From an uncultured virus (IMG/VR IMGVR_UViG_3300036945_000909) (lineage: Duplodnaviria > Heunggongvirae > Uroviricota > Caudoviricetes): a stretch of 64,000 nt of DNA. Below are positions 6,685 to 50,780 of the stretch, piece after piece (within the stretch, counting starts at the first letter, position 1; the number at the start of each line of letters is the position of its first letter). The notes beneath the pieces were generated by a model. The model was not told where the DNA came from and did not search any database. It worked only from the letters and a program-made list of their open reading frames with translations. The translations under genes and the position numbers were made by a program. The stretch is from the IMG/VR virus record IMGVR_UViG_3300036945_000909; one strand, written 5' to 3'.

Positions 6685-7059
6685 GGGGATGCCTGGTATT
6701 GACAGATATGAAGTGTTGATATAATTGCAAGCAGGATTAGATGGAAATCCTTAATCACCTATCGAACAATAAACGCAGAAGAAAAATCTTCATTCACCTT
6801 TGCAGATGCTATGGCATTTGTAGGTGCTGATTTAGCTGTAGCAGCATAATCACCCTCGTACATATCATGAGGTAAAAAAGAATATGAACTCAGGTGGAAA
6901 AGTGATTGAACCCGAAATCGAATCACTCATTGTTTATCGGTTGCCGATGGTGAAGAACCAACCGAATATTTTGTTAGTTAAGAAAAACTAACTAAGCTTG
7001 TGAATGAGGTTTATTAAACCATATTTTGGACAGCGGTTCGACTCCGCTCATCTCCACCA
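6685..7059 (+). ncRNA. ssrA: tmRNA
   Basis: 5' GGGGATG..TATTGAC; 3' T-arm GGTTCGACTCC and CATCTCC-ACCA with a G3:U70 Ala determinant; tag ORF at 6775-6849 encodes AEEKSSFTFADAMAFVGADLAVAA*. Confidence 0.93.
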
Positions 7060-17428: not shown

Positions 17429-17689
17429 ATGAGTCAGATAATTAACATACTTGAAGGTTGGGGTAATGTAGTTAGAAATCACTTCGATATGCTCGATAGT
17501 GATACTAAATCTATATCTACCTCTCGTTTAGTGCATTGTGATAATTGTGATTTAAGAACTTCAAATTCATGTGATACTGATAAATACGGATATCATGTTA
17601 AAACTGGTAAACGAACTTATGGGTGTGGGTGTAATATTGCAGCTAAAACTTTATCCAGAAATTCTGAATGTCCATTAGGTAAATGGTAA
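17429..17689 (+). CDS. Small Cys-rich metal-binding protein (DUF6171-like)
   Basis: R..HC..C, GCGC....K and ECPLGKW motifs. Confidence 0.65.
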   Translation: MSQIINILEGWGNVVRNHFDMLDSDTKSISTSRLVHCDNCDLRTSNSCDTDKYGYHVKTGKRTYGCGCNIAAKTLSRNSECPLGKW

Positions 17690-18342: not shown

Positions 18343-20172
18343 ATGGACGATATTTCAAAAGTAGAAAAACGTGTTCTTCAACAAATAGAAAGTAATGTTC
18401 CGTTGGTTGATGTGAAAATTGATTTAAGTAATTATCTGAAACACGCTTTTGTCAATGACCATATTGATAAATCTAAACAAGAAATAACTCACACTTTTCA
18501 ATATGAAACATTGGGAGAACAAGATTGTTTATTAATGCAAACTCCTAATATCAATGAATCTGGATATTATGCTGGTATCGTTGCGTTAAAATCCTACATA
18601 GATAAATTTCATTCAGATTTAAATGTTGCAATTATAGACCCCGTAATTGATTATTTCTATCTATACCCTCCTAATAAAGAATCCGAATTTTTTAATATGT
18701 TCAATACCTATGCAATGCAAGGTCAATATGAACGTTTATATGGATTCAAAGAAATGACTGATATAATTGAAGGATTTGTTTTCAAATATATCGAAAAAAC
18801 TAATCCAGCATTCGTTGGGTTGAGTATTATTGATGGTAATATAGATGCATCAATTGCAATTGCAAGAAGAGTTAAAGAACAATATCCACATATTAAAATT
18901 TTATTTGGTGGTAATGGTATTGAGATTTTAGACATTGGTGTTCTACCCAATCCATCATACACAACTGAAAAATATGATTTCATTGATATTTTTGTAAGGG
19001 GCGATGGTGAAATTACTTTTGTAGAAATATTAAAATCAGATATGTCTGAAGAATCCCTAAAAACTATAAATGGAATTATTTGGAGAAATTCGGAAGGTAA
19101 ACTAGTTCATAATCTTACTCGTGAAAATGTTGATATGGATATTTTACCATTTCCAGATTATGCTTCATTGGAGGAAAATTATTATTACAAATCTACCTAC
19201 CAATACAATGTTCCACTTGTTATGAGTAGAGGATGTCCTTACAGATGCACATTTTGTTCAGTGCCTGAATTTATTCCAGTCTTCCGCTATCGTAAATTAG
19301 AATCGGTAATTGAAGAAATGGAACATTGGATTAACAAAGGACGTTATCATTTCTTTTGTCACGATTCAATTATCAATGGTGATCCAAGATGGTTGAAAAA
19401 ATTCTGCGAAGCAGTTATTGAAAAAGATTGGTATGCAAAATATGGTGTATCGTTTGGTGGTAATATGCGATTACAAACTCCAATGCGTGATTTAGAAACA
19501 ATGCGATTATATCGTAAAGCAGGATTGTTGAAAATGATTACTGGGTTTGAATCTGCATCTGAGCCGGTTTTAAAGCATATGAAAAAATATCCTAATATGG
19601 ATGGGGTTAGAGAAATTTTTGAAAATGTTCGAATTATCAATAGTGAAAATGAACCCCCAATGATGTTTGCAATGCAACTTATTATTGGATACTTAAACGA
19701 AACTGAAGAAGATTTTCAAAAAACAATTGATTTTGTGAAAGAGTATAAAGATTGTATGTCTGAAATCTTAACTTGTTCTGGGTTTCTTATCCACGAAACT
19801 TTACGAAAGAAATGGGTAGAAGATGGTAATTTTTTACAATACCATAATACCGTTAATTTTAATACTAACTACAATACTGCAGAAGAACGTTTGGATAGAC
19901 TCAATAGAATCGATGAAGTATTTAAAGAAATCGGAATACCACATTCAGTATATAACAGAGGTTTATACTATGATTTAAAAGATAAAACTGATACTGAAAT
20001 AGGTGATATTTACAATATTGATGATTGTAAAAATCCGAACAAACTACAAGAAATAAATTCTTATTATAAAAATACTGAAGAAGAAATAATTGTGGAAATT
20101 CAATCAGAAATAATTGAAGAGCAAATTGAAATATCAATTGAAGAACCTCCTAAAATTACTAAACTAATTTAA
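18343..20172 (+). CDS. Cobalamin-binding radical SAM enzyme
   Basis: B12-binding-type domain (ILFGG, VRGDGE), LPFPDY, SRGCPYRCTFC, GFESAS. Confidence 0.9.
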   Translation: MDDISKVEKRVLQQIESNVPLVDVKIDLSNYLKHAFVNDHIDKSKQEITHTFQYETLGEQDCLLMQTPNINESGYYAGIVALKSYIDKFHSDLNVAIIDPVIDYFYLYPPNKESEFFNMFNTYAMQGQYERLYGFKEMTDIIEGFVFKYIEKTNPAFVGLSIIDGNIDASIAIARRVKEQYPHIKILFGGNGIEILDIGVLPNPSYTTEKYDFIDIFVRGDGEITFVEILKSDMSEESLKTINGIIWRNSEGKLVHNLTRENVDMDILPFPDYASLEENYYYKSTYQYNVPLVMSRGCPYRCTFCSVPEFIPVFRYRKLESVIEEMEHWINKGRYHFFCHDSIINGDPRWLKKFCEAVIEKDWYAKYGVSFGGNMRLQTPMRDLETMRLYRKAGLLKMITGFESASEPVLKHMKKYPNMDGVREIFENVRIINSENEPPMMFAMQLIIGYLNETEEDFQKTIDFVKEYKDCMSEILTCSGFLIHETLRKKWVEDGNFLQYHNTVNFNTNYNTAEERLDRLNRIDEVFKEIGIPHSVYNRGLYYDLKDKTDTEIGDIYNIDDCKNPNKLQEINSYYKNTEEEIIVEIQSEIIEEQIEISIEEPPKITKLI

Positions 20173-24977: not shown

Positions 24978-25337
24978 ATGAGAGCTAGAACATTTACAAC
25001 CGTTGGTTGGGAAAAATATCTAAATCCAATCGACAATCCTTTTGTTCAAAAATTTTTAGATAAAAATGGAAATGAGGTATTTGACCAAATTGCGTTAAAC
25101 ATAAACACCGCAATCCTTCAGAAAAAAGAATCAATAGCATTTGTAGTTCATACCAATGCATCTTCGATAGTTGTAATCGAACGAAAAGATTATGAAGTTG
25201 TGTTAAATCATTGTTTAGATTGGTTTATTAAAAAAGAAAATTATGAATTCTGTGCTAGAATTGATGAATTCAAACAAAATTTAGCAAAATCAAAAGAACC
25301 TGTTAGTAGATTTAAGAGTAAAAAAACTTTAATTTAA
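24978..25337 (+). CDS. Hypothetical protein with UVR-like C-terminal helix
   Basis: ENYEFCARI motif; ends KKTLI. Confidence 0.65.
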   Translation: MRARTFTTVGWEKYLNPIDNPFVQKFLDKNGNEVFDQIALNINTAILQKKESIAFVVHTNASSIVVIERKDYEVVLNHCLDWFIKKENYEFCARIDEFKQNLAKSKEPVSRFKSKKTLI

Positions 25338-32485: not shown

Positions 32486-32514
32486 AAAAGGGAGTTTTCG
32501 AACTCCCTTTTTTT
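32486..32514 (+). terminator. Intrinsic terminator
   Basis: AAAAGGGAGTT/AACTCCCTTTT hairpin. Confidence 0.8.
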
Positions 32515-32563
32515 ATAATAATATATTTATATATAATGAATAATACAATAAACTACTTAGACA

Positions 32564-33133
32564 ATGTTTACACTTTTTATAGATAATTTTTTAACAAATG
32601 AAGAGTGTGAATCAATTATACAACTTGGAAAAGATAGTGGATTGCAGAAAATGTCATCATCTAAATTTGTAAATGGTGTTCATGTTGAAACCGCTATAAA
32701 TGAAGATACTAATAAACGAATGGGATGTTATTTGGTAGATACCGCATTACACCTCCCAATCATACAAGCCATTTCATCCAAAGTTATTCATACATTAAAT
32801 GAATTAAAAATATTTAATGGTTTAAATTATTCACATATACCAAAATATTCGTTCAATCAATATTCTAAAAATGATTTTTTAGATTGGCATTCAGATTTAC
32901 ATGAAATTCAATATGGTGCAACTATCACTACTATATTTCAGTTGAATGATTCTTATGATGGTGGTGATATAAAATATATAATAGATAATGTTGAATATTC
33001 CGTTCCCAAAAAAACTGGTAGTATTTTTATCTTCGATTCCAATATCTCTCATTCAGTTGATAAATTAACTGATGGTGTTAGATATTCATTAAACGTTTGG
33101 CCAGGAAGTGTTCTAAAAAAATCAATAATTTAA
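32564..33133 (+). CDS. 2OG-Fe(II) oxygenase (prolyl 4-hydroxylase-like)
   Basis: NFLT.EEC, WHSD, LND.YDGG, H.V and RYSL motifs. Confidence 0.88.
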   Translation: MFTLFIDNFLTNEECESIIQLGKDSGLQKMSSSKFVNGVHVETAINEDTNKRMGCYLVDTALHLPIIQAISSKVIHTLNELKIFNGLNYSHIPKYSFNQYSKNDFLDWHSDLHEIQYGATITTIFQLNDSYDGGDIKYIIDNVEYSVPKKTGSIFIFDSNISHSVDKLTDGVRYSLNVWPGSVLKKSII

Positions 33134-33145
33134 TAAATTAATCAT

Positions 33146-33481
33146 ATGAAATTTATAATAATATTTACCATATTCATATTAACATTATACATCGGTATAG
33201 GTTGGAACAAAATATGGGATAGGTATAAAATGTATTTATCCAAAGAGTATTGGACAGATTACAATATAATAGAATTAGCAGCATGGTTGGCTAAAGCAAT
33301 AATCATAATCCCAGGTCTAATATTTGGAGTTGAGTTGTGGTATATGCATTTTTTAACATTAGCAACTTCTTCTGCTTTAATTTGGGCATCGATGCGAAAA
33401 TCATTACCAACATTGATACTATTCAATACCATATGGATTTGTATATCACTAACAATAATAATAAGACACTTAATACCATAA
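33146..33481 (+). CDS. Small multi-TM membrane protein
   Basis: Hydrophobic; KSLPTLILFN motif. Confidence 0.7.
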   Translation: MKFIIIFTIFILTLYIGIGWNKIWDRYKMYLSKEYWTDYNIIELAAWLAKAIIIIPGLIFGVELWYMHFLTLATSSALIWASMRKSLPTLILFNTIWICISLTIIIRHLIP

Positions 33482-33482
33482 T

Positions 33483-34724
33483 ATGAAAGTAGTAATAATT
33501 GGTGGAGGAACTGCCGGGTGGTTAACTGCATTGGTAGTTAATAAATTTTGGAAAAACGCAGAAGTTACTTTAATTGAAAGTTCTAAGATAGGAATATTAG
33601 GAGCAGGAGAAGGTGGAACTCCCAATTTCGGAAGAATGTTGAGTTTGTTGGAAATTAATCATGAAGATTTTTTTGAAAAAACTAAATCAACCATAAAGAG
33701 TGGATTACATTTAGTTAATTGGACAGGTAATGGAGAATTATCAAAACATTTATTTAGTGGAGCAGAACCAGATTCATTTAATAAACATCATGCATACCAC
33801 TTCGATGCTCGAGCAGTTGCTGAATATTTTAAAGGTATTTCCATATCAAGAGGAGTTAATTGGATTGATGGTGAAGTTGATACAATTGAAAATAATGGTG
33901 ATGAAATTAAATCTGTTTCATTGAAAGATAATACTAAAATAGATTTAGATTTTGTATTTGATTGTAGTGGGTTCAAGCGTATTATCATAGATGGCGTACA
34001 TTCGGAAGAATGGATTGATTATGATAAATATTTAATGATGAATAAGGCGTTTACATTTTTCCTACCACAGTCTACGGAAGGTGTAGGGTATTCCAAAACA
34101 TATACTCGTATGGTTTCTATGAATTGTGGTTGGATGTTTCAAATACCACTACAACATAGATGGGGGTGTGGATATGTCCACAACGATAAATATATTTCAA
34201 TAGATGAAGCTAAGAAAGAAATCGAAGATTATTTGGGTCATGAAGTAAATATACAAAAGATATTTGATTTCAAACCAGGGACACATAAACGTAGTTGGAT
34301 AGGAAATTCAATATCAATTGGATTATCATATGGGTTTATTGAACCATTAGAAGCAACATCGTTAATGTCTACTATCATGCAATTAAAGAGATTAATTGAC
34401 GTGGAGTTTGATATGGAATATAGAGATAGATATAATACATGGTGCTATCAAATAAACGAACAAAATTTAAACTTCATACGATTCCATTATCTATGTGAAC
34501 GAACTGATACTGAATTTTGGAAGGATTGCACATCATTACCATTACCGACTAAATTAAAAAATATCTTAGATAAAAATAATGCACTAATACCTGTCAATGA
34601 TTCTCAATTATTTAATATGCTAGAATTAGAAGAAGCATCGATAAACGAATTAACATTTTATGTAAATAATTATTCTGCTATTTTTGTGAAAAATAAAAAC
34701 AAAGGAAAAAAACAATTGTTATAA
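33483..34724 (+). CDS. Flavin-dependent (tryptophan 7-halogenase-like) halogenase
   Basis: GGGTAGW, GAGEG, KSG..L.NW, AYHFDA, DCSGF, GWMFQIPL and GFIEPLEAT motifs. Confidence 0.9.
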   Translation: MKVVIIGGGTAGWLTALVVNKFWKNAEVTLIESSKIGILGAGEGGTPNFGRMLSLLEINHEDFFEKTKSTIKSGLHLVNWTGNGELSKHLFSGAEPDSFNKHHAYHFDARAVAEYFKGISISRGVNWIDGEVDTIENNGDEIKSVSLKDNTKIDLDFVFDCSGFKRIIIDGVHSEEWIDYDKYLMMNKAFTFFLPQSTEGVGYSKTYTRMVSMNCGWMFQIPLQHRWGCGYVHNDKYISIDEAKKEIEDYLGHEVNIQKIFDFKPGTHKRSWIGNSISIGLSYGFIEPLEATSLMSTIMQLKRLIDVEFDMEYRDRYNTWCYQINEQNLNFIRFHYLCERTDTEFWKDCTSLPLPTKLKNILDKNNALIPVNDSQLFNMLELEEASINELTFYVNNYSAIFVKNKNKGKKQLL

Positions 34725-34725
34725 T

Positions 34726-35367
34726 ATGGAAAAGATAATATTTGATAATGATATTTGTATTTGGAAAACCAAATTAAATTTATCTGAATCTAAGGGTGAA
34801 ATTTTAGAGTTATGTGAAGGTGTAGTAAAAAACAATTCAGATGGTGTAAATTTTGATGCATATTCATATTCCAAAATAAAAGATGATGTAAATTTTTTGG
34901 GTAATATTGTTATTAAAAATAAATTAGATGAGATTGGTCAAATATCTATAAACAATTGCAAAAAAATACACAACGATAGGGGTATCGATTTCAATATGAT
35001 AGAAACTGATGCTTGGGTTAATATTGTAAGAAGTGATAATCCAGTTCAATTAAATTTTAAGGAAGGTCATGAAAAATATCACATACATACCGAATTAAAT
35101 AAAACAAATAATTCATTCGTCCCATCTTACACCTATGTGTATTATATACAAATGCCTGATAGGATAGAGGGTGAAGATGCTGTTTTATATTTTAAAAGTA
35201 AAAGTGGTAAGGAATACTCCATATTGCCAGAAGAAGATGATTTAATAATTATGGAAGCAGATGTCCCACATGCACCAAATAATGCACCCAACTCTACAAT
35301 AGATAGAATTGTGTTTGCAGGTAATGTTGGATTAAGTTATGTTAAAAAAGAAAAGTCTTTAATATAA
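34726..35367 (+). CDS. Putative 2OG-Fe(II) oxygenase / DSBH protein
   Basis: AWVN, HIH, YVYYIQMP, H.P and RIVFAGN motifs. Confidence 0.7.
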   Translation: MEKIIFDNDICIWKTKLNLSESKGEILELCEGVVKNNSDGVNFDAYSYSKIKDDVNFLGNIVIKNKLDEIGQISINNCKKIHNDRGIDFNMIETDAWVNIVRSDNPVQLNFKEGHEKYHIHTELNKTNNSFVPSYTYVYYIQMPDRIEGEDAVLYFKSKSGKEYSILPEEDDLIIMEADVPHAPNNAPNSTIDRIVFAGNVGLSYVKKEKSLI

Positions 35368-36092
35368 TGCTAGTAGATAATAAATTTATATATCTAAGTT
35401 TACCGAGATGTGCATCAACTGCTTTTTTCATTTCATGTATTAGAAATGATATAAAAATTGAACATGCTCAAAATTCAGATGATAATATGTATCACACTAT
35501 TGATTTGGAATCAGTGAGTAATATAGAATTGGTTTATAACATTAATCATTTTCACGAAACAATTGAATCTTTAAAAACTAAGTTTGGAAATAGGTATGAA
35601 ATTATATCAGTAAAACGAAATCGTCATCAAAGATTCATTTCATATTTTAACCATATAATCGGTGAATTATACCGAAATGGATATATGGAATTATATCATA
35701 AAGTTTTGGAGTTAAATGTAAATGATATATTATTTTATAATAGTATTGATTTGATTAACGTTGAAAGTAGAGTAAAATTAGTTAATACGTTTTTAACTAA
35801 TATAGGATTCGTTGAATATGATAAAAATATACAATCATTATTCTTGCCATTGTTTTCACCATTGTGCACATATCATAACAATGATTCATCAATAAAATGG
35901 TTTGATTTTAATAATTTATCTGAATTAGAAAAATGGGTAAGTGTTAAATTAAATAAACCATTTAAATTGGAAAACTTTGGTTCTAGTTATAACTACAAAT
36001 CTAAGTTGATAATGGATGATGAGTTTATACAAAAATATAATAACATTTACGATTATTATGATTTACCAAAATCAACTAAAACTTTAATATAA
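35367..36092 (+). CDS. Sulfotransferase-fold protein (paralog 1)
   Basis: FIYLSLPRCAST (PAPS 5'-PSB-like) and RN...RFISYF (3'-PB-like) motifs. Confidence 0.7.
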   Translation: MLVDNKFIYLSLPRCASTAFFISCIRNDIKIEHAQNSDDNMYHTIDLESVSNIELVYNINHFHETIESLKTKFGNRYEIISVKRNRHQRFISYFNHIIGELYRNGYMELYHKVLELNVNDILFYNSIDLINVESRVKLVNTFLTNIGFVEYDKNIQSLFLPLFSPLCTYHNNDSSIKWFDFNNLSELEKWVSVKLNKPFKLENFGSSYNYKSKLIMDDEFIQKYNNIYDYYDLPKSTKTLI

Positions 36093-36850
36093 TGTTAGTA
36101 GATAATAAATTTATATATCTAAGTCTACCAAGATGTGCATCAACTGCATTTCATTATTCATGTCTTATATCCGATTTAAAAGTTGAAACTTATACCAATA
36201 CTTTAATACCATTAAATGATAATGTTGATTTTAAAACAATTGATAAATCTAATTTAATGAATCACATATATCATGCTCATGAATCAATTGGTGATTTACA
36301 ATCTAAATTTGGAACATCATATCCAGTTGTTGCAGTTAAACGAAACCGACATGAAAGATTTTATTCATTATATAAACACATCTTGTTTGATTTAAAACGA
36401 AGTGGTTATCCTAAAATTTATGAAGCTTTTTCTAAACTTACATTAGATGAATTATTTTTTTTTACTAAAAATGATTTAATTAATAAAAAACAAAGATGGG
36501 ATGTAATATCTCAATATTTAATTGACTTAAAACTATTAGATAAAAAAGTTGATATTATCAATTGGGAAAATACTATATTTGGTTATGCTGTAAATATGAT
36601 TGATATATTACTAACACCCATTTCATATTGGACAAATAACGATTCTAATATTATTTGGTTTGATTTTGATAAAATAAATGAATTGGAAAGATGGGTTTCT
36701 GAAAAAGTAGATAAACCCTTTAAATTAGAATCAGCAAATTCTAGCAAACACATTAAATGTAATATTACATTAGATGATAGGTTTATAAAGAAATATAATG
36801 ATATTTATGATTACTACGATTTACCAAAATCTACCATTACCTTAATATAA
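36092..36850 (+). CDS. Sulfotransferase-fold protein (paralog 2, tandem duplicate)
   Basis: First 20 aa identical to 35367; RN...RFYSLY; shared YDYYDLPKST tail. Confidence 0.7.
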   Translation: MLVDNKFIYLSLPRCASTAFHYSCLISDLKVETYTNTLIPLNDNVDFKTIDKSNLMNHIYHAHESIGDLQSKFGTSYPVVAVKRNRHERFYSLYKHILFDLKRSGYPKIYEAFSKLTLDELFFFTKNDLINKKQRWDVISQYLIDLKLLDKKVDIINWENTIFGYAVNMIDILLTPISYWTNNDSNIIWFDFDKINELERWVSEKVDKPFKLESANSSKHIKCNITLDDRFIKKYNDIYDYYDLPKSTITLI

Positions 36851-36854
36851 TAAT

Positions 36855-37142
36855 ATGATTGATTACAAAGAAATATTTGAAGCATGGAAAATATCGTTTA
36901 ATCCAAATCATTCACAAGAATTATTAGCAAAGGAACGATTGGATGTATGTTTGGGATGTGATTTTAGAAAAGAAGTTTTAAAAGGAGTAAAGTGGTCTGC
37001 ATATTGTGGTGATTGTGGGTGTCCGTTAAATAAAAAAGTATTTTCAACTATGTTTAACCCATGCACTCAAAAAAAATGGGAAAATGTAGATTCTAAGTAT
37101 TTAGATATAATTAAAACTAAAAATAAAAATTCTATAATTTAA
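36855..37142 (+). CDS. Small Cys-rich metal-binding protein (DUF6171-like)
   Basis: RLDVC.GC, C.DCGCPL.KK and C...KW motifs. Confidence 0.65.
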   Translation: MIDYKEIFEAWKISFNPNHSQELLAKERLDVCLGCDFRKEVLKGVKWSAYCGDCGCPLNKKVFSTMFNPCTQKKWENVDSKYLDIIKTKNKNSII

Positions 37143-37188
37143 ATAATCATATATTTATAGAAGAATATTAAACAAATATAAGGATTTT

Positions 37189-38676
37189 ATGAAAGCAACT
37201 ATCATAGGTAGCGATTTATTGGAAAAAAATGGAAGTGTTAAGTTTTTAGAAATAAACACAAACACAACCATTTATAACACAGGTGCCGATTTATTAGATT
37301 ATACCGCATTATTTGATGTCTTAACAACTAACAACATAACTGAATTTCATTTTATATGGACAGAAGTGGATTCATATACCCCACTTGTAGAACCATTTAG
37401 ATTTAAAGAAATTTTACAAGAAAAATGTGCGGAAAATAACATATCATTCACAGAATATGTAGTTCCTGTTAATTCAGTAACCGTTCCATACATTGAAGAT
37501 GCACCTAACAAATTTATATTAAGACAATCATATGATACTACTGCATTAGTAGATGAAACATATTGTGCTAATAAATTTGAGTTCTTTAACTTAATGAGTG
37601 GGTCTGAATATATTCCTGCTACATATTTTAGTGGTAGTGCTCTACAAATGGATGAATTTGCTACATTGGATACATCATTAGATGCACCAAATGTTTTAGT
37701 TAAAGCAAACTCTCCTTCGTATGATTTAAATTTATATCCAGCATTATACAAATTAGATGATATTTCTGAATTGAACAGTCTAAAAACCGAATTAGGTTCT
37801 GATTACTTAGTTCAGGAATTTGTGTATTCAGATGACAATATTGTTGATGGTAGATATTCTATCATTCGTAGTATTGATATTATATATGGTTCTAACTTAG
37901 ATGTAATTAACTTAGGTGGGTATAAACAAAGCACATTAATACCGATGAGTTTTACTACTGATGAATTTGTAGTAGATACTAAAAGATTAAATCAAAAAAG
38001 TAGAATAAAATATATTTCAAAACCTATTACAAGAGAATATGCTAATGAATATCATACCGATTCTGATTCTGTTATTTTAGATTATACCGGTTCATTGGTA
38101 GATGTAGATAATTTGCAATTAGGTGATTATATAAAATCTATAAATTTCCAAGATATTCATGGTAATAATGCAGCTGCATTTGACCAAACTCTCTTAGAAA
38201 CCTATGGTTGGGAAACTACAATACCACAAGCAAATGAAACCCTAACTGCAGAATCATCGAGTTTAGCAAATATGTATTCGTCATCAGTTGATACTATCTA
38301 TGTAAGAATTACATTAGAAGATGGTAAAACGTGGGTTGATGCACCTTCTTGTACATACTTCATCGAAGAAAACGATTCAGATAAAACTAGATTTGAAAAA
38401 GTAAATAATATGGTAGTGGGTGATAAATTGGTTGTAACCGATGCATCTACAAACCAATTGACTACGATAGCAATTACATCATTGGAAATGGAACATGCCC
38501 AAACAATTATTTATAGTTTAGACTTTGAACCATCTGATTTATTCTTAGTAGATGTGGGGGGTGGATTGTTTAGTGTGATGCACAATACTTGTTGGTGTCC
38601 ATGGATTTATTGCGGATACTTTTGCAACTCATACTACTGCCCTGGCTGCGGTGGTGGTGGATTTGAAAAAGCATAA
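37189..38676 (+). CDS. ATP-grasp-like + Hint (intein-like) fusion with a C-terminal Cys-rich peptide
   Basis: N-terminal FLEINTN, VLVK, YLVQEF and IIRS (circularly permuted ATP-grasp-like); Hint elements L.LGDYI, RITLEDG, VVGDKL, IYSLD.EPSDLFLV and terminal MHN; then TCWCPWIYCGYFCNSYYCPGCGGGGFEKA. Confidence 0.7.
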   Translation: MKATIIGSDLLEKNGSVKFLEINTNTTIYNTGADLLDYTALFDVLTTNNITEFHFIWTEVDSYTPLVEPFRFKEILQEKCAENNISFTEYVVPVNSVTVPYIEDAPNKFILRQSYDTTALVDETYCANKFEFFNLMSGSEYIPATYFSGSALQMDEFATLDTSLDAPNVLVKANSPSYDLNLYPALYKLDDISELNSLKTELGSDYLVQEFVYSDDNIVDGRYSIIRSIDIIYGSNLDVINLGGYKQSTLIPMSFTTDEFVVDTKRLNQKSRIKYISKPITREYANEYHTDSDSVILDYTGSLVDVDNLQLGDYIKSINFQDIHGNNAAAFDQTLLETYGWETTIPQANETLTAESSSLANMYSSSVDTIYVRITLEDGKTWVDAPSCTYFIEENDSDKTRFEKVNNMVVGDKLVVTDASTNQLTTIAITSLEMEHAQTIIYSLDFEPSDLFLVDVGGGLFSVMHNTCWCPWIYCGYFCNSYYCPGCGGGGFEKA

Positions 38677-38705
38677 TATTACTAATTAAAAAAATATAAA
38701 ATAAA

Positions 38706-38846
38706 ATGGCAACTATAAATAAAACACACAGACCAGCTTCAGTAATTAAAGCTAACATCACTCCACTATCAAGTGAATTAAAAGTGAAACTTGCAAATGC
38801 AGTTAGTGAGGTTGTAAATAAAATCAAAGAAACCCATTTAAATTAA
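38706..38846 (+). CDS. 46-aa peptide (not in the ORF track)
   Basis: MATINKTHRPASVIKANITPLSSELKVKLANAVSEVVNKIKETHLN*; its stop overlaps the next ATG (TAATG). Confidence 0.7.
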   Translation: MATINKTHRPASVIKANITPLSSELKVKLANAVSEVVNKIKETHLN

Positions 38847-39541
38847 TGGCTTCATCCAGATTACATCAATTAAAAATAGTTGATAGTATTGTGGGCGTTG
38901 AAAATGGGAATATATTATTATCAAAAATAGAAATAGATTATGGTAATGATATTAAAAAACATAGTGATTTTACATTACGAAATATTGTCTATGATGTATC
39001 TAATTACATCGAAATGACATTAAACTCCGATTGGAGTATTTTAAATACAATTACCATACAAGATATACAACTATTATGGGGTGAATATATTACAGAATAT
39101 CGTAATAATTATTCATCCCATAATTATATTGAAACTAATGCTATTTTATTGGATAGTAGAGTTGGTGGTATTGGGTATTATTGGGTTGATTTGAATACCC
39201 ATCATTCAATTGAAATGATTGCTCGAATGGATAATTGTGGTAGATGTGATTATGACAATACCTTAATTGAATTACGAGAATCTACCCATCATTCGAACAA
39301 ATCCCACATTGTTATTGTATATAATAAATCAAACGGGTTAATCAAACAAATAAAAGGTATAGGTGATAATCTCCCATCTGAAACTTATTGGGATGAAATA
39401 TTTAATTTCTATATCAACACACCATATTTAATTTCAGGTCATAATTATACACAGAAAGAAGGTTTAGATTTTAAACCAGAAATGTTTAGTAAAGAAAAAT
39501 ATGAATTAGTCAAATCTAAAATTATAACTAACTTATTATGA
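38846..39541 (+). CDS. Hypothetical protein, PcfJ-like C-terminal domain
   Basis: M..CG, LIELR, SHIVI and IKQIKG...P motifs. Confidence 0.55.
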   Translation: MASSRLHQLKIVDSIVGVENGNILLSKIEIDYGNDIKKHSDFTLRNIVYDVSNYIEMTLNSDWSILNTITIQDIQLLWGEYITEYRNNYSSHNYIETNAILLDSRVGGIGYYWVDLNTHHSIEMIARMDNCGRCDYDNTLIELRESTHHSNKSHIVIVYNKSNGLIKQIKGIGDNLPSETYWDEIFNFYINTPYLISGHNYTQKEGLDFKPEMFSKEKYELVKSKIITNLL

Positions 39542-40104
39542 ATTATACTATAAATAATAATTTTTGTGATAAAGCTGAAGCTAATTCTATAATTGATTTT
39601 TGTATCAACTATGGTGAACCCTTTTCATATAACCCAACTCAAAATTGGGATTGTAGACGTATATACGATGATGAATTTAAGAAAAAAATAATTACTTTAT
39701 TAGTAGATAATTACAAAACGGAAAAATTTAAATTATGGTTTGATTACACTAATTTTAATTTAAAAAACTTCAACATCAGTCTAACATCATATTACAATGG
39801 TAGATATTTAAATTTGCATAAAGATAAGACAAGTGAACTAACAACGGTAATAGTATTATCGGATGGGTTTGAAGGTGGTGAGTTTGCACTATGTGAAGGT
39901 AAAAATCCACCAATACATTTTGAAACCTTAGAAGGGATTTCAACCTTTAATCTTAACTTAGGAGATTCCATCTCATTTAATGGGTCTGAAACATATCATG
40001 GAGTATTACCCGTAACCAATGGTATTAGATATGCATTAAATATTTGGATGACTGAAACCGATTTTGATTATCCAAAACTTAAAGTTAATACTACATTATT
40101 ATGA
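39538..40104 (+). CDS. 2OG-Fe(II) oxygenase
   Basis: LHKD, FEGGEF, HGVLPV and RYALNIW motifs. Confidence 0.88.
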   Translation: MNYTINNNFCDKAEANSIIDFCINYGEPFSYNPTQNWDCRRIYDDEFKKKIITLLVDNYKTEKFKLWFDYTNFNLKNFNISLTSYYNGRYLNLHKDKTSELTTVIVLSDGFEGGEFALCEGKNPPIHFETLEGISTFNLNLGDSISFNGSETYHGVLPVTNGIRYALNIWMTETDFDYPKLKVNTTLL

Positions 40105-40748
40105 GAGTTGCAATACTAACAAGTGCACGAAGTGGTTCTACGAGTTTATATCATTTAATCGAAGCACATTTAAATAAAAAAAATCATATTTGTATATCAG
40201 AACCATTTAATAATTATTGGCGAGAGAAGATAGGTAAACAAACATATGATGTGATTTTTTTTGAAAATAAGAAAAACATTTTTATAAAAACATTTGTCAG
40301 TAAAACTCAAAAACCAAAAAGTTTATTAGAAAATGAAGATGTATATTGGGAGTGGTTTTTTAACTACTTTGAAAAAATAATTTTATTAGATAGAATAGAT
40401 AAAGATTTACAAAGTGAAAGTTTAACATATCATATAAAAACAGATGATATTCATAGTTGGCAAAAAAGACAAGTATATGATTTATCAATAACTACACCTG
40501 AAGAGATTCTTAATAGTAAAAATGTATTATTAAATGAATCCAATATGATACATGAATTTTCTAAAAAAGGCTATCCCTTATATTATTTTGAAGATATTTT
40601 TATTAAAAAAGATAAAAGTAAAATCATCGATATTTTTAAATATTTAGATATAGATTTGAACGAATCAATGTATAATGATTATGTGTATTCTGATGCGTGT
40701 AAAATACGAATAGGTGAAGACGAATCCAAATTTAAAAGTATAATATAG
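40101..40748 (+). CDS. Sulfotransferase-like (Stf0-type P-loop) protein
   Basis: ARSGSTSL, SEPFN, ILLDR.D...Q.ES and YYFED motifs. Confidence 0.72.
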   Translation: MRVAILTSARSGSTSLYHLIEAHLNKKNHICISEPFNNYWREKIGKQTYDVIFFENKKNIFIKTFVSKTQKPKSLLENEDVYWEWFFNYFEKIILLDRIDKDLQSESLTYHIKTDDIHSWQKRQVYDLSITTPEEILNSKNVLLNESNMIHEFSKKGYPLYYFEDIFIKKDKSKIIDIFKYLDIDLNESMYNDYVYSDACKIRIGEDESKFKSII

Positions 40749-40857
40749 TATCGTATATTTGGTATTGTCATAAATTTTTAGTATATTTGTGAATACGATA
40801 TATAACTCCCTTTTTTTATATCCTAATATTTATTACTATACACTAAAATATGTAATT

Positions 40858-50183: not shown

Positions 50184-50780
50184 ATGAAAAAAGAACTATT
50201 AGAAAATGGATTCGTTTCGTTTGATATAACAAGTGAATATGAATTAGAATTATTATCAAAGATATACTCAAATTTATCGAATAATCAATTTAATAAATTA
50301 GTAGTATCATATGATAGTGTTTTACATAATCATCCAGTTAATAATTCAACTTTTAAAAATTTAAGTAAAACAAAAGATGAATTAATTGAAACAGATAATT
50401 TAGCACAAATTTGGTTTTCGGCATACGATACTTCAACTGAAACTAATTTATTATTAAAAAGTATTTTTTACAAATTTTATGAATATACTGATGTTCATTT
50501 CTTAAATGTAATAACCTTATATAATAATGAATGTTTTATAATACCACACATCGATGGTGAGGACCCAACCCGAATAATGGGTGTATTAATTTATCTAAAC
50601 AAAGATTATAACGAAGCAAATGGTGGAAATTTAATTTTAAAAAACGAAACCAAAATATTACCTGAATATGGTAGAGTTGTAATAATCGATTACACACAAA
50701 ATTCAGTTGAACACGAGGTCACTAAAGTGTTAGAAGGAGAGCGTTACGCAATTTGTGCATTCATACATAAAAAACAATAA
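50184..50780 (+). CDS. 2OG-Fe(II) oxygenase
   Basis: PHIDG, LIYLN..Y...NGG, HEV and RYAI motifs. Confidence 0.85.
   Translation: MKKELLENGFVSFDITSEYELELLSKIYSNLSNNQFNKLVVSYDSVLHNHPVNNSTFKNLSKTKDELIETDNLAQIWFSAYDTSTETNLLLKSIFYKFYEYTDVHFLNVITLYNNECFIIPHIDGEDPTRIMGVLIYLNKDYNEANGGNLILKNETKILPEYGRVVIIDYTQNSVEHEVTKVLEGERYAICAFIHKKQ

Follow-up and report, generated by a model that had tools for sequence, protein, structure and literature searches.

A shared C-terminal tail on unrelated tailoring enzymes of large aquatic phages as a probable docking label for a ligase hub

A gene cluster in an uncultured, large, freshwater-type phage raises the question of why enzymes of different folds should end in nearly the same few residues. 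The window analyzed here is a 64,000-nucleotide stretch of phage DNA, and the original prediction held that nine proteins encoded at 32564..40748 share such a tail. All nine reading frames and tails were confirmed (Table 1), as was the absence of the tail from the membrane protein (33146), the Hint fusion (37189), the 46-aa peptide (38706) and the 2OG enzyme at 50184. Ends of the form [LI][LI] occur on 9 of 11 cluster proteins compared with 5 of 70 proteins outside the cluster (plus-strand ORFs of at least 80 aa; Fisher p=3.7e-7, the motif having been picked post hoc), and in relatives 629 of 866 neighboring genes at 77 loci, redundant loci counted, are tagged. While the shared tail stands, the motif first proposed, K-x-[S/T]-[L/I]-[L/I], literally matches only two of the nine, and the corrected consensus is K/N-K-[T/S/K/N]-[L/I]-[I/L]-COOH. 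Among 1706 relatives, the last position is I (63%) or L (23%), position -2 is L (66%) or I (22%), position -3 is T (28%), S (23%), K (18%) or N (10%), position -4 is K (54%) or N (14%), and position -7 is K in 39%. The tag is strictly terminal (offset 0 in 1398 of 1657, with only 4-33 at offsets 1-4). A literature search outside most subscription journals and supplements found no published description of this tail.

The tag is found on 37 protein groups, unlinked by BLAST, around homologs of the 37189 product, and together with mostly untagged distant paralogs this is consistent with the proposal that it was appended convergently. With regard to the predicted diversity of folds, Pfam bears out the 2OG oxygenase and halogenase assignments, and the PcfJ-like label is an Atlas lead. 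The label of sulfotransferase for the 35367 product is moderately supported by its predicted structure, for which the top 16 fold matches are all of sulfotransferase type (best match rmsd 3.5, 156 aligned) and in which the tail forms a coil past the last helix (218-232); the protein has no Pfam match and no Foldseek match at E<=0.001. The 40101 product has no match in Pfam, PHROG or NCBIfam. Tagging is specific to families, being common in 2OG oxygenases (376 of 429) and halogenases (55 of 60) and nearly absent from APS kinase (3 of 72), DUF2061 (1 of 82), Hsp20 (0 of 57) and the ligase itself (2 of 240). The tail of the 38846 product is labile, and the near-identical genome G002 has an ortholog with a different end.

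Because the scoring matrix was trained on cluster genes of relatives, tag scores within clusters are not independent of it. Four families were initially counted as tagged under a loose rule, namely NT5C, family 53, peptide deformylase and family 78; the matrix tags 7 of 15, 0 of 14, 0 of 11 and 1 of 9 of their members, respectively, and their tails are probably family-specific hydrophobic ends. They are included in the position-frequency/codon, genome-wide-score and near/far-paralog counts and left out of the offset test and the groove-altered-ligase neighbor comparison. Window ORFs 29238 and 53886 passed the score marginally and were not counted as tagged (carbamoyltransferase homologs, 2 of 55).

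Table 1. Cluster genes, upstream motifs and outlying tagged genes in the window.
Feature	Coordinates	Strand	Basis
B12-binding radical SAM enzyme, outside cluster, tagged PKITKLI	18343..20172	+	5/10 homologs tagged
119-aa protein outside cluster, tagged KSKKTLI	24978..25337	+	8/21 homologs tagged
ATATTTAT, putative late-promoter motif ahead of first cluster gene	32523..32530	+	motif search
2OG-Fe(II) oxygenase, tagged VLKKSII	32564..33133	+	Pfam PF13640 E 1e-10; tag score 9.6
Small membrane-like protein, here untagged (RHLIP)	33146..33481	+	3/14 homologs tagged
Flavin-dependent halogenase-family protein, tagged KGKKQLL	33483..34724	+	PF04820 E 6e-88; 116 of best 120 homologs tagged
Divergent 2OG-Fe(II) oxygenase-like, tagged KKEKSLI	34726..35367	+	PF13640 E 0.0014, under cut-off; family 107/121 tagged
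Sulfotransferase-like, tagged KSTKTLI	35367..36092	+	AlphaFold pLDDT 90; fold Z 7.5 to heparan 2-O-sulfotransferase
Tandem paralog of 35367, tagged KSTITLI	36092..36850	+	46% identity; DNA repeats D1-D3
ATATTTAT motif ahead of 36855	36801..36808	+	motif search
95-aa Cys-rich protein (probable Zn-binding), tagged KNKNSII	36855..37142	+	five invariant Cys; phrog_13558; family 149/162 tagged
ATATTTAT motif ahead of ligase gene	37151..37158	+	motif search
Ligase-Hint protein (candidate hub), untagged	37189..38676	+	ATP-grasp 1-282, Hint 286-466, then C-terminal 29-aa six-Cys peptide
46-aa candidate partner peptide, untagged	38706..38846	+	conserved I-K-x-K-H-L end
PcfJ-like protein, tagged KIITNLL, labile in relatives	38846..39541	+	Atlas score 0.95; 12/19 homologs tagged
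2OG-Fe(II) oxygenase, tagged KVNTTLL	39538..40104	+	PF13640 E 6e-8
Possibly sulfotransferase-like, tagged SKFKSII	40101..40748	+	N-terminal loop motif; sequence reading only

One alternative is that the tail arises incidentally from the DNA or RNA where genes meet, through A/T bias, translational coupling or a site of cassette recombination. In its favor, overlap with the following start is frequent among tagged genes, starts are rich in A, and ATA is favored overall as the codon of the last Ile (72% versus 48%). Overlapping genes of untagged families, however, end in the tag in only 7 of 287 cases, and tagged families carry it both where the gene overlaps the next (659 of 783) and across gaps of more than 60 nt (137 of 177). 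Codon use in the tag equals that of the gene body when the gap exceeds 20 nt, and all three stop codons occur. The last 12 nt comprise 507 distinct strings among 1372 genes, the bases after the stop are not conserved, and searches at the junctions found no repeat family and no Rfam match. On these overlap, gap, codon and last-12-nt comparisons the junction explanation appears already largely refuted and is very improbable. The tag is selected as protein and not as a DNA junction motif.

On the genomic evidence, the tag follows the ligase and not phage kinship. A complete record that is 98% identical to the window (G002) served as stand-in for its whole genome. Ends scoring at least 5 are enriched genome-wide in all five ligase-positive genomes (G002, 17/320; G004, 16/237; G020, 21/351; G022, 20/346; G021, 9/314; expected 0.8-1.5), while three ligase-negative relatives are near background (G006, 3/231; W01, 1/182; W02, 1/217); a capsid-based scan yielded a single complete uncultured ligase-negative genome. 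The tag-positive genomes are more distant from G002 (capsid 33-47%, 84-105 shared genes) than G006 is (capsid 72%, 146 of 380 genes in common). Members of tagged families carry the tag in 36 of 56 cases within 12 kb of the ligase and in 12 of 68 farther away. The ligase-less genomes hold six members of tagged families, none tagged, and with so few members the missing tags there partly reflect missing enzymes.

The ATP-grasp domain of the ligase (residues 1-282) is of GspS/YgiC type (7uka, Z 10.2, rmsd 4.0, 201 aligned; 2io7, Z 9.3; 3k1t, Z 8.9; Foldseek 7uk6, E 1.9e-5) and found no family match in sequence-level searches including Pfam, PHROG and NCBIfam. Residues D9, E21, N23, R112, D122, K172 and R227 are invariant in 237 of 237 ligases, and D9, E21, N23 and K172 are taken to be the metal- and nucleotide-binding residues of GspS-class enzymes. 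The arrangement D-x11-E-x-N near the N-terminus is also invariant, with a spacing that presumably matches that of GspS; two positions before D9 these ligases have Gly, Ala or Ser, where GspS presumably has Arg. The Hint domain (1at0, Z 16.1, rmsd 2.5, 143 aligned; 2lwy, Z 16.0) keeps its C-terminal His-Asn (H465 in 95% and N466 in 99% of the alignment) and lacks the N-terminal Cys/Ser nucleophile of splicing inteins, positions 289-290 being H/T and variable. From intein chemistry in general, it would be expected to cleave itself at the C-terminal Asn only. No ligase-Hint homolog was found in 50,697 records of cultured phages, and a single-pattern scan (A4) of low sensitivity in cellular genomes returned only one 2.8-kb contig from a metagenome bin, which hints that the ligase-tag module is confined to viruses.

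In five sets of loci, the ligase is followed by a small ORF in 59/59, 39/40, 30/55, 59/59 and 27/27 cases; in one clade it is a different, 29-aa ORF with the KxKH end in 0 of 23, and the tag is unchanged. A Cys-rich core peptide is encoded in 148 loci, and 52 loci have fewer than 8 residues between Hint domains. The tag occurs without an encoded Cys-rich peptide on 235 of 671 genes, with at least two tags in 43 of those 52 loci. Thus the Cys-rich peptide is not required for the tag. In G002, 30 of 303 genes are preceded by the ATATTTAT motif (versus 0.2% of coding windows), including those for tail fiber, neck, tail tube and baseplate hub, and TATTTAT lies within 70 nt upstream of the ligase in 180 of 218 distinct loci, suggesting that the cluster is expressed late.

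A predicted three-chain complex of the ligase, the 46-aa peptide and the tagged 36855 product, a single model with one tagged partner, places the tail on the first two. Its score is 0.63, compared with 0.01 for the best of three controls and 0.00 upon ligase replacement; 116 of 157 solved pairs attain this level, as do 2 of 215 mismatched ones, a calibration that is approximate for a three-chain job with custom alignments. At least 37% of contacts recur between runs, the partner has a pLDDT of 71 or more, and the confident interface on the partner is confined to its last ten residues (86-95). These contact ligase residues 2-4, 90, 98-102, 116, 118-121, 232-234 and 237 and peptide residues 40 and 44-45. 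The groove columns are more conserved than the whole domain (0.65 versus 0.46), although this may serve catalysis because the groove adjoins the conserved R112-D122 stretch. In the model the last residue of the tail contacts ligase residue 2, a position at which 232 of 237 ligases have K/R. Six ligases lack D116, each with 0-1 tagged neighbors; the ligases with an altered groove fall into just two lineages, which have few tailoring genes, and good tags occur on 3 of their 9 neighbors versus 1451 of 1809 elsewhere. The idea of a common scaffold on which the tail docks tailoring enzymes is supported, the likely scaffold being 37189 with 38706. The 36855 product, also put forward as a reader, behaves as a client, as it is itself tagged and, within a ligase clade that keeps the tag, occurs at just 6 of 59 loci.

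The favored interpretation, with a probability of roughly 0.6, is that the tail is a docking label for a late-expressed phage ligase hub. The C-terminal motif (basic residues, a small polar residue, two aliphatic residues and a free carboxylate) would sit, without forming a covalent bond, in a conserved groove on the ATP-grasp domain, a groove completed in the model by the C-terminus of the 46-aa peptide. The hub would gather, late in infection and near its own substrate, a changing set of clients: hydroxylases, halogenase, and sulfotransferase-like, SGNH-like, radical SAM, SET, methyltransferase-like and glycosyltransferase-like enzymes. Enzymes that supply cofactors would need no docking, and they carry no tag. 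The substrate would most likely be the released Cys-rich peptide where present, and otherwise a peptide or protein of the virion surface.

The same groove could instead belong to a conjugating enzyme, the ligase phosphorylating the tail carboxylate and joining the tagged protein to an amine (of the Hint-released peptide, a polyamine, or a virion lysine or protein). Such a reaction would suit an obligatorily terminal tail, invariant catalytic residues and a nearest fold, YgiC/YjfC, whose members bear the title peptide-spermidine ligases in a reference list. It is nevertheless doubtful, as none of D9, E21, N23, R112, Y115, K172 and R227 is among the confident tail contacts (residues not so named are merely uncertain, in a model without ATP), and untagged cofactor-supply enzymes better fit recruitment to a substrate. 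Were it true, these phages would conjugate proteins through a five-residue handle without any E1/E2 cascade, and the tail could be used as a portable ligation tag.

Similarly doubtful is another reader of the tail, whether a protein of the GT2/65-aa/GT7-LamG/radical SAM block, a virion part that reads it as a packaging signal, or a host scaffold. That block occurs in 5 of 5 tag-positive and 0 of 3 tag-negative genomes, 13 of 38 GT7-LamG loci share contigs with ligase loci by record name, and the same tag persists across ligases of only ~25-35% identity. When GT7-LamG genomes without the ligase were sought, the two largest records held a full ligase and the others were 11-72% complete. Against such a reader, tag frequency drops with distance from the ligase gene (104 of 192 clusters within 1 kb, 44 of 346 at 5-8 kb), and the ligase model positions the tail specifically. 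PDZ_2 (PF13180), the single PDZ model used, matches none of four related records (controls 14 of 14), so that the suggested likeness to PDZ ligands is a resemblance only. A shared degron by which a host protease would limit enzyme lifetime is unlikely. Non-polar free C-termini are known protease signals, and a host reader would account for the constancy of the tag across clades; yet most distant paralogs within the same genomes lack the tag, the closer relative without the ligase is not enriched (host ranges of the genomes not being matched), and the phage's own tmRNA tag has a different end. Neither the degron nor the packaging-signal suggestion of the original prediction gained support.

If the docking interpretation is right, widespread large aquatic phages assemble a modification pathway by plug-in, with a five-residue tail recruiting any enzyme, which would explain why gene content around the ligase varies between genomes. 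It would open to testing the many oxygenase, halogenase and sulfotransferase genes of T4-like phages that still lack an explanation, the tail would predict pathway membership of uncharacterized genes even far from the cluster, and the small hub/tail pair could serve as an orthogonal enzyme-scaffolding tool.

Halogenase/2OG-oxygenase/carbamoyltransferase clusters of T4-like cyanophages contain overlapping enzyme families, and the accessible part of their description makes no mention of a C-terminal tag (PMC7824862); they differ in that the cultured-phage records contain no ligase-Hint homolog. Three 17-kb regions around the halogenases of HTVC008M, P-SSM2 and S-RIM44 have 0 of 60 proteins tagged. 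PDZ class I ligands and the peroxisomal PTS1 are short terminal peptides that address proteins. The phage tail resembles these and encapsulin cargo peptides in being a short terminal peptide, probably an address, on unrelated enzymes; class I PDZ ligands likewise place S/T two positions ahead of a hydrophobic last residue, whereas here S/T is found in just 51%. No HK97-fold encapsulin shell gene is among the cluster families under general annotation.

In RiPP biosynthesis each enzyme carries a recognition element that reads a leader peptide. The phage cluster likewise gathers tailoring enzymes, with an ATP-grasp enzyme, around a gene able to yield a short Cys/aromatic-rich ribosomal peptide, but here the enzymes would bear the motif and the precursor-bearing protein would read it, no leader is apparent and release would be via Hint. 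Pfam and NCBIfam scans of cluster proteins, which could miss divergent elements, matched no RRE/PqqD element, and a RiPP core peptide in every cluster was rejected, 52 tag-keeping loci lacking the core. The ligase shares the fold of residues 1-282 with GspS, E. coli YgiC-YjfC and eukaryotic glutathione synthetase (Z 8.4-10.2) and is unlike the GspS/YgiC class in its fusion to Hint domains and a variable peptide; to our knowledge, no docking role is known for ligases of that class.

T4-like phages generally have their own sliding clamp, as do the phages studied here. A clamp-binding motif was considered and rejected, since the polymerase and clamp of G002 lack the tag and three related T4-like genomes show no enrichment. 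T4 gp43, gp55 and gp33 dock on the gp45 clamp through an interchangeable short C-terminal motif (PMC2988020). Like the system proposed here, that one joins unrelated phage proteins through a short hydrophobic C-terminal motif on a variable linker to one phage-encoded hub; the gp45 motif is hydrophobic and acidic and serves three replication and transcription clients, whereas the tail described here is basic, is carried by dozens of tailoring-enzyme families and has as its modeled hub a ligase instead of a sliding clamp.

All nine tails claimed for the tailoring cluster by the original prediction were recovered exactly in the window ORFs. An ending of [LI][LI] is carried by 9 of the 11 cluster ORFs of at least 80 aa versus 5 of 70 elsewhere in the window (p=3.7e-7, post hoc), and two more window proteins possess the tail, namely the B12-binding radical SAM protein 18343 and the 119-aa protein 24978. 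The literal motif first given, K-x-[S/T]-[L/I]-[L/I], matches only 2 of the 9 tails; the best-kept lysine lies directly before the S/T position. In the AlphaFold model of the sulfotransferase-like protein 35367, the tail is a coil past the last helix.

The window comes from a large T4-like phage rich in AT (GC 27-40%) and encodes baseplate gp25. A complete record of 288,673 bp (G002) has the same gene order and a 98% identical copy of 37189, an ATP-grasp ligase–Hint fusion. By capsid, the nearest cultured phages are Flavobacterium phage immuto at 52% and, at 53%, one entered as Microcystis phage Mel-JY01. The host is possibly a member of Bacteroidota, as suggested by immuto and by the A-rich gene starts (SD-like words precede only 52 of 257 genes), while the two cultured relatives point to different hosts.

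The distribution of the tag among genomes follows the ligase. Scored by a position matrix for which 1663 relatives were the training set (scores of cluster genes are therefore not independent), each of five ligase-positive genomes holds 9-21 tagged proteins versus 0.8-1.5 expected; this genome-wide enrichment is unlike the ligase-negative relatives G006, W01 and W02, which hold 3, 1 and 1. By capsid, G006 is closer to G002 than the other tag-positive genomes are (72% identity versus 33-47%), and thus the module and the tag do not follow capsid kinship. Members of tagged families carry the tag in 36 of 56 cases near a ligase versus 12 of 68 far from one, and the only 6 members found in ligase-less genomes are all untagged. 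None of 60 proteins around the halogenases of three cyano- and pelagiphages is tagged.

Loci around 37189 homologs were collected with five queries. In these sets, which are redundant and of which the last overlaps the first, same-strand ORFs within 5 kb of the ligase gene end in [LI][LI] in 629/866, 235/678, 437/938, 385/1020 and 483/703 cases. The tail is unchanged across ligase homologs of down to about 21-35% identity. When 4468 distinct proteins were clustered after removal of their last ten residues, the resulting families were either tagged or untagged. Tagged families include 2OG oxygenases (376/429), the Zn protein (115/162), two sulfotransferase-like families (141/155 and 101/118), SGNH-like proteins (81/114), radical SAM proteins (77/89) and the halogenase (55/60), while APS kinase (3/72), an unannotated 126-aa family adjoining it (0/88), DUF2061 (1/82), Hsp20 (0/57), carbamoyltransferase (6/63) and the ligase itself (2/240) are untagged. 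The score marks 1588 of 4062 proteins as tagged, and these fall into 37 BLAST-unlinked groups with five or more members.

The motif is strictly terminal, and the linker between the last conserved residue and the tail varies inside families (11-21 residues in the 2OG family, for example). The tag is kept both where the next gene overlaps (659 of 783) and where a gap exceeds 60 nt (137 of 177), whereas overlapping genes of untagged families show the same ending in just 7 of 287 cases. All three stop codons occur after the tag, no conserved bases were found 3' of the stop, and at gaps above 20 nt the codon use of the tail equals that of the gene body; the over-use of ATA with all genes pooled (72% versus 48%) is a secondary effect of gene overlap. 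The tag is real and widespread, and it is selected as protein, not as DNA.

The AlphaFold model of 37189 (pLDDT 89) assigns residues 1-282 to a GspS/YgiC-class ATP-grasp domain (fold match 7uka, Z 10.2) and residues 286-468 to a Hint domain (1at0, Z 16.1). Across 237 ligases, seven residues never vary. The Hint domain keeps the His-Asn pair and lacks the N-terminal Cys/Ser, a combination that suggests C-terminal release only. It is followed by a hypervariable Cys-rich peptide, sometimes then by a second Hint, and in 13% of the members of one Atlas protein cluster by an S74 domain. In 52 loci there is almost nothing between the two Hints, and the tag is still present; the peptide therefore cannot be the sole purpose. 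An ORF of 30-50 aa nearly always lies directly after the ligase gene. Late expression of the ligase gene is suggested by the ATATTTAT motif: 180 of 218 loci have it ahead of this gene, and in G002 it stands before 30 of 303 genes, tail fibre, neck, tail tube and hub genes among them.

A single complex was predicted, comprising ligase residues 1-285, the 46-aa peptide (38706) and, as partner, the tagged 95-aa Cys-rich protein 36855. It scored 0.63 versus 0.01 for the best of three controls. Among solved complexes 116 of 157 reach this mark, among mismatched pairs 2 of 215, counts that apply here only roughly. At least 37% of contacts agree between runs, and partner pLDDT is at least 71. Although all 95 residues were available to the model, only the tail of the partner, residues 86-95, makes confident contacts; its last residue is predicted to contact ligase residues 2-4, 120-121, 232-234 and 237, and the penultimate one peptide residues I40 and H44. 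A search for solved complexes of these families, from which the model might have drawn, found none; the ligase folds themselves are in the PDB. Contacted ligase columns have a conservation of 0.65 versus 0.46 on average (3 in 20,000 random draws, the columns not being independent), and 232 of 237 ligases carry a basic residue at position 2. The six ligases without D116 each have 0-1 tagged neighbours; because these represent two lineages with few tailoring genes, in which 3 of 9 neighbours are still tagged, this co-variation is only suggestive.

YgiC/YjfC, the hub's fold class, are cited as peptide-spermidine ligases (PMC12568646), which leaves a low probability for the alternative that the ligase acts on the tail covalently. 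The invariant catalytic residues are absent from the listed tail contacts, which favours, without proving, a docking groove rather than the active site. A block of GT2, 65-aa, two GT7-LamG and radical SAM genes, together with a second radical SAM gene, also co-occurs with the ligase module (5 of 5 tag-positive and 0 of 3 tag-negative genomes) and remains an alternative as tag reader or linked pathway. The favoured prediction, with a probability of roughly 0.6, is that the tag serves as a docking label and that the ligase/46-aa pair reads it. The proposed address label docking enzymes on a scaffold is supported, this pair being its likely reader and the binding being predicted from one modelled complex.

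Positions of further features in the window and in related loci
Position	Feature	Observation
6685-7059	Phage-encoded tmRNA	Tag peptide ends AVAA; 26 tRNA calls then run to 16973
17429-17689	86-aa protein	Untagged distant paralog (E 6e-7) of tagged Cys-rich 36855; natural negative control
24978-25337	119-aa protein of no assigned family	Outside the cluster, adjoins phoH; among the strongest tags; 8/21 homologs tagged
32501-32530 and 40804-40833	30-nt direct repeat, 83% identical	Flanks the whole cluster; T-run and putative late-promoter motif in each
33146-33481	Membrane-like protein	Ends Leu-Ile-Pro; 3/14 homologs lack the final Pro and score as tagged
38590-38676 (homologs P0121-P0270)	Post-Hint peptide	Many versions have a Lys-hydrophobic end that distantly recalls the tag
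L085:12964-18379 (G002 107.9-113.4 kb)	GT2/GT7-LamG/radical SAM block	Proteins untagged
L177-L212	One ligase clade	Different 29-aa small ORF, next after the ligase gene, replaces the 46-aa peptide, without the KxKH end
L246-L250 (one clade) and L167	Ligases with a substituted residue 2 and/or 116 in the predicted groove	Few tailoring neighbours

The end of the membrane-like protein 33146 is possibly a tag in the course of loss or gain. The flanking repeat may mark the borders of a mobile block or may simply be a terminator/promoter sequence used again.

That a terminal tag can serve as an address is already known. PDZ ligands resemble the tag and work similarly, as do encapsulin targeting peptides, but the tag is probably a member of neither class. 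The same applies to the T4 clamp-binding motif, an interchangeable C-terminal epitope by which unrelated proteins share one hub (PMC2988020): it works alike, but the phage tag does not belong to it. Cyanophage halogenase/2OG clusters have been published, in the available part of PMC7824862 with neither ligase nor tag, and a literature search, most subscription journals being outside its scope, found no published description of the module. RiPP clusters are similar in gene content, but the logic is inverted here and the ligase clusters fail the core-peptide test. A tailoring pathway organised by a tail around a phage ligase falls outside every family tested.
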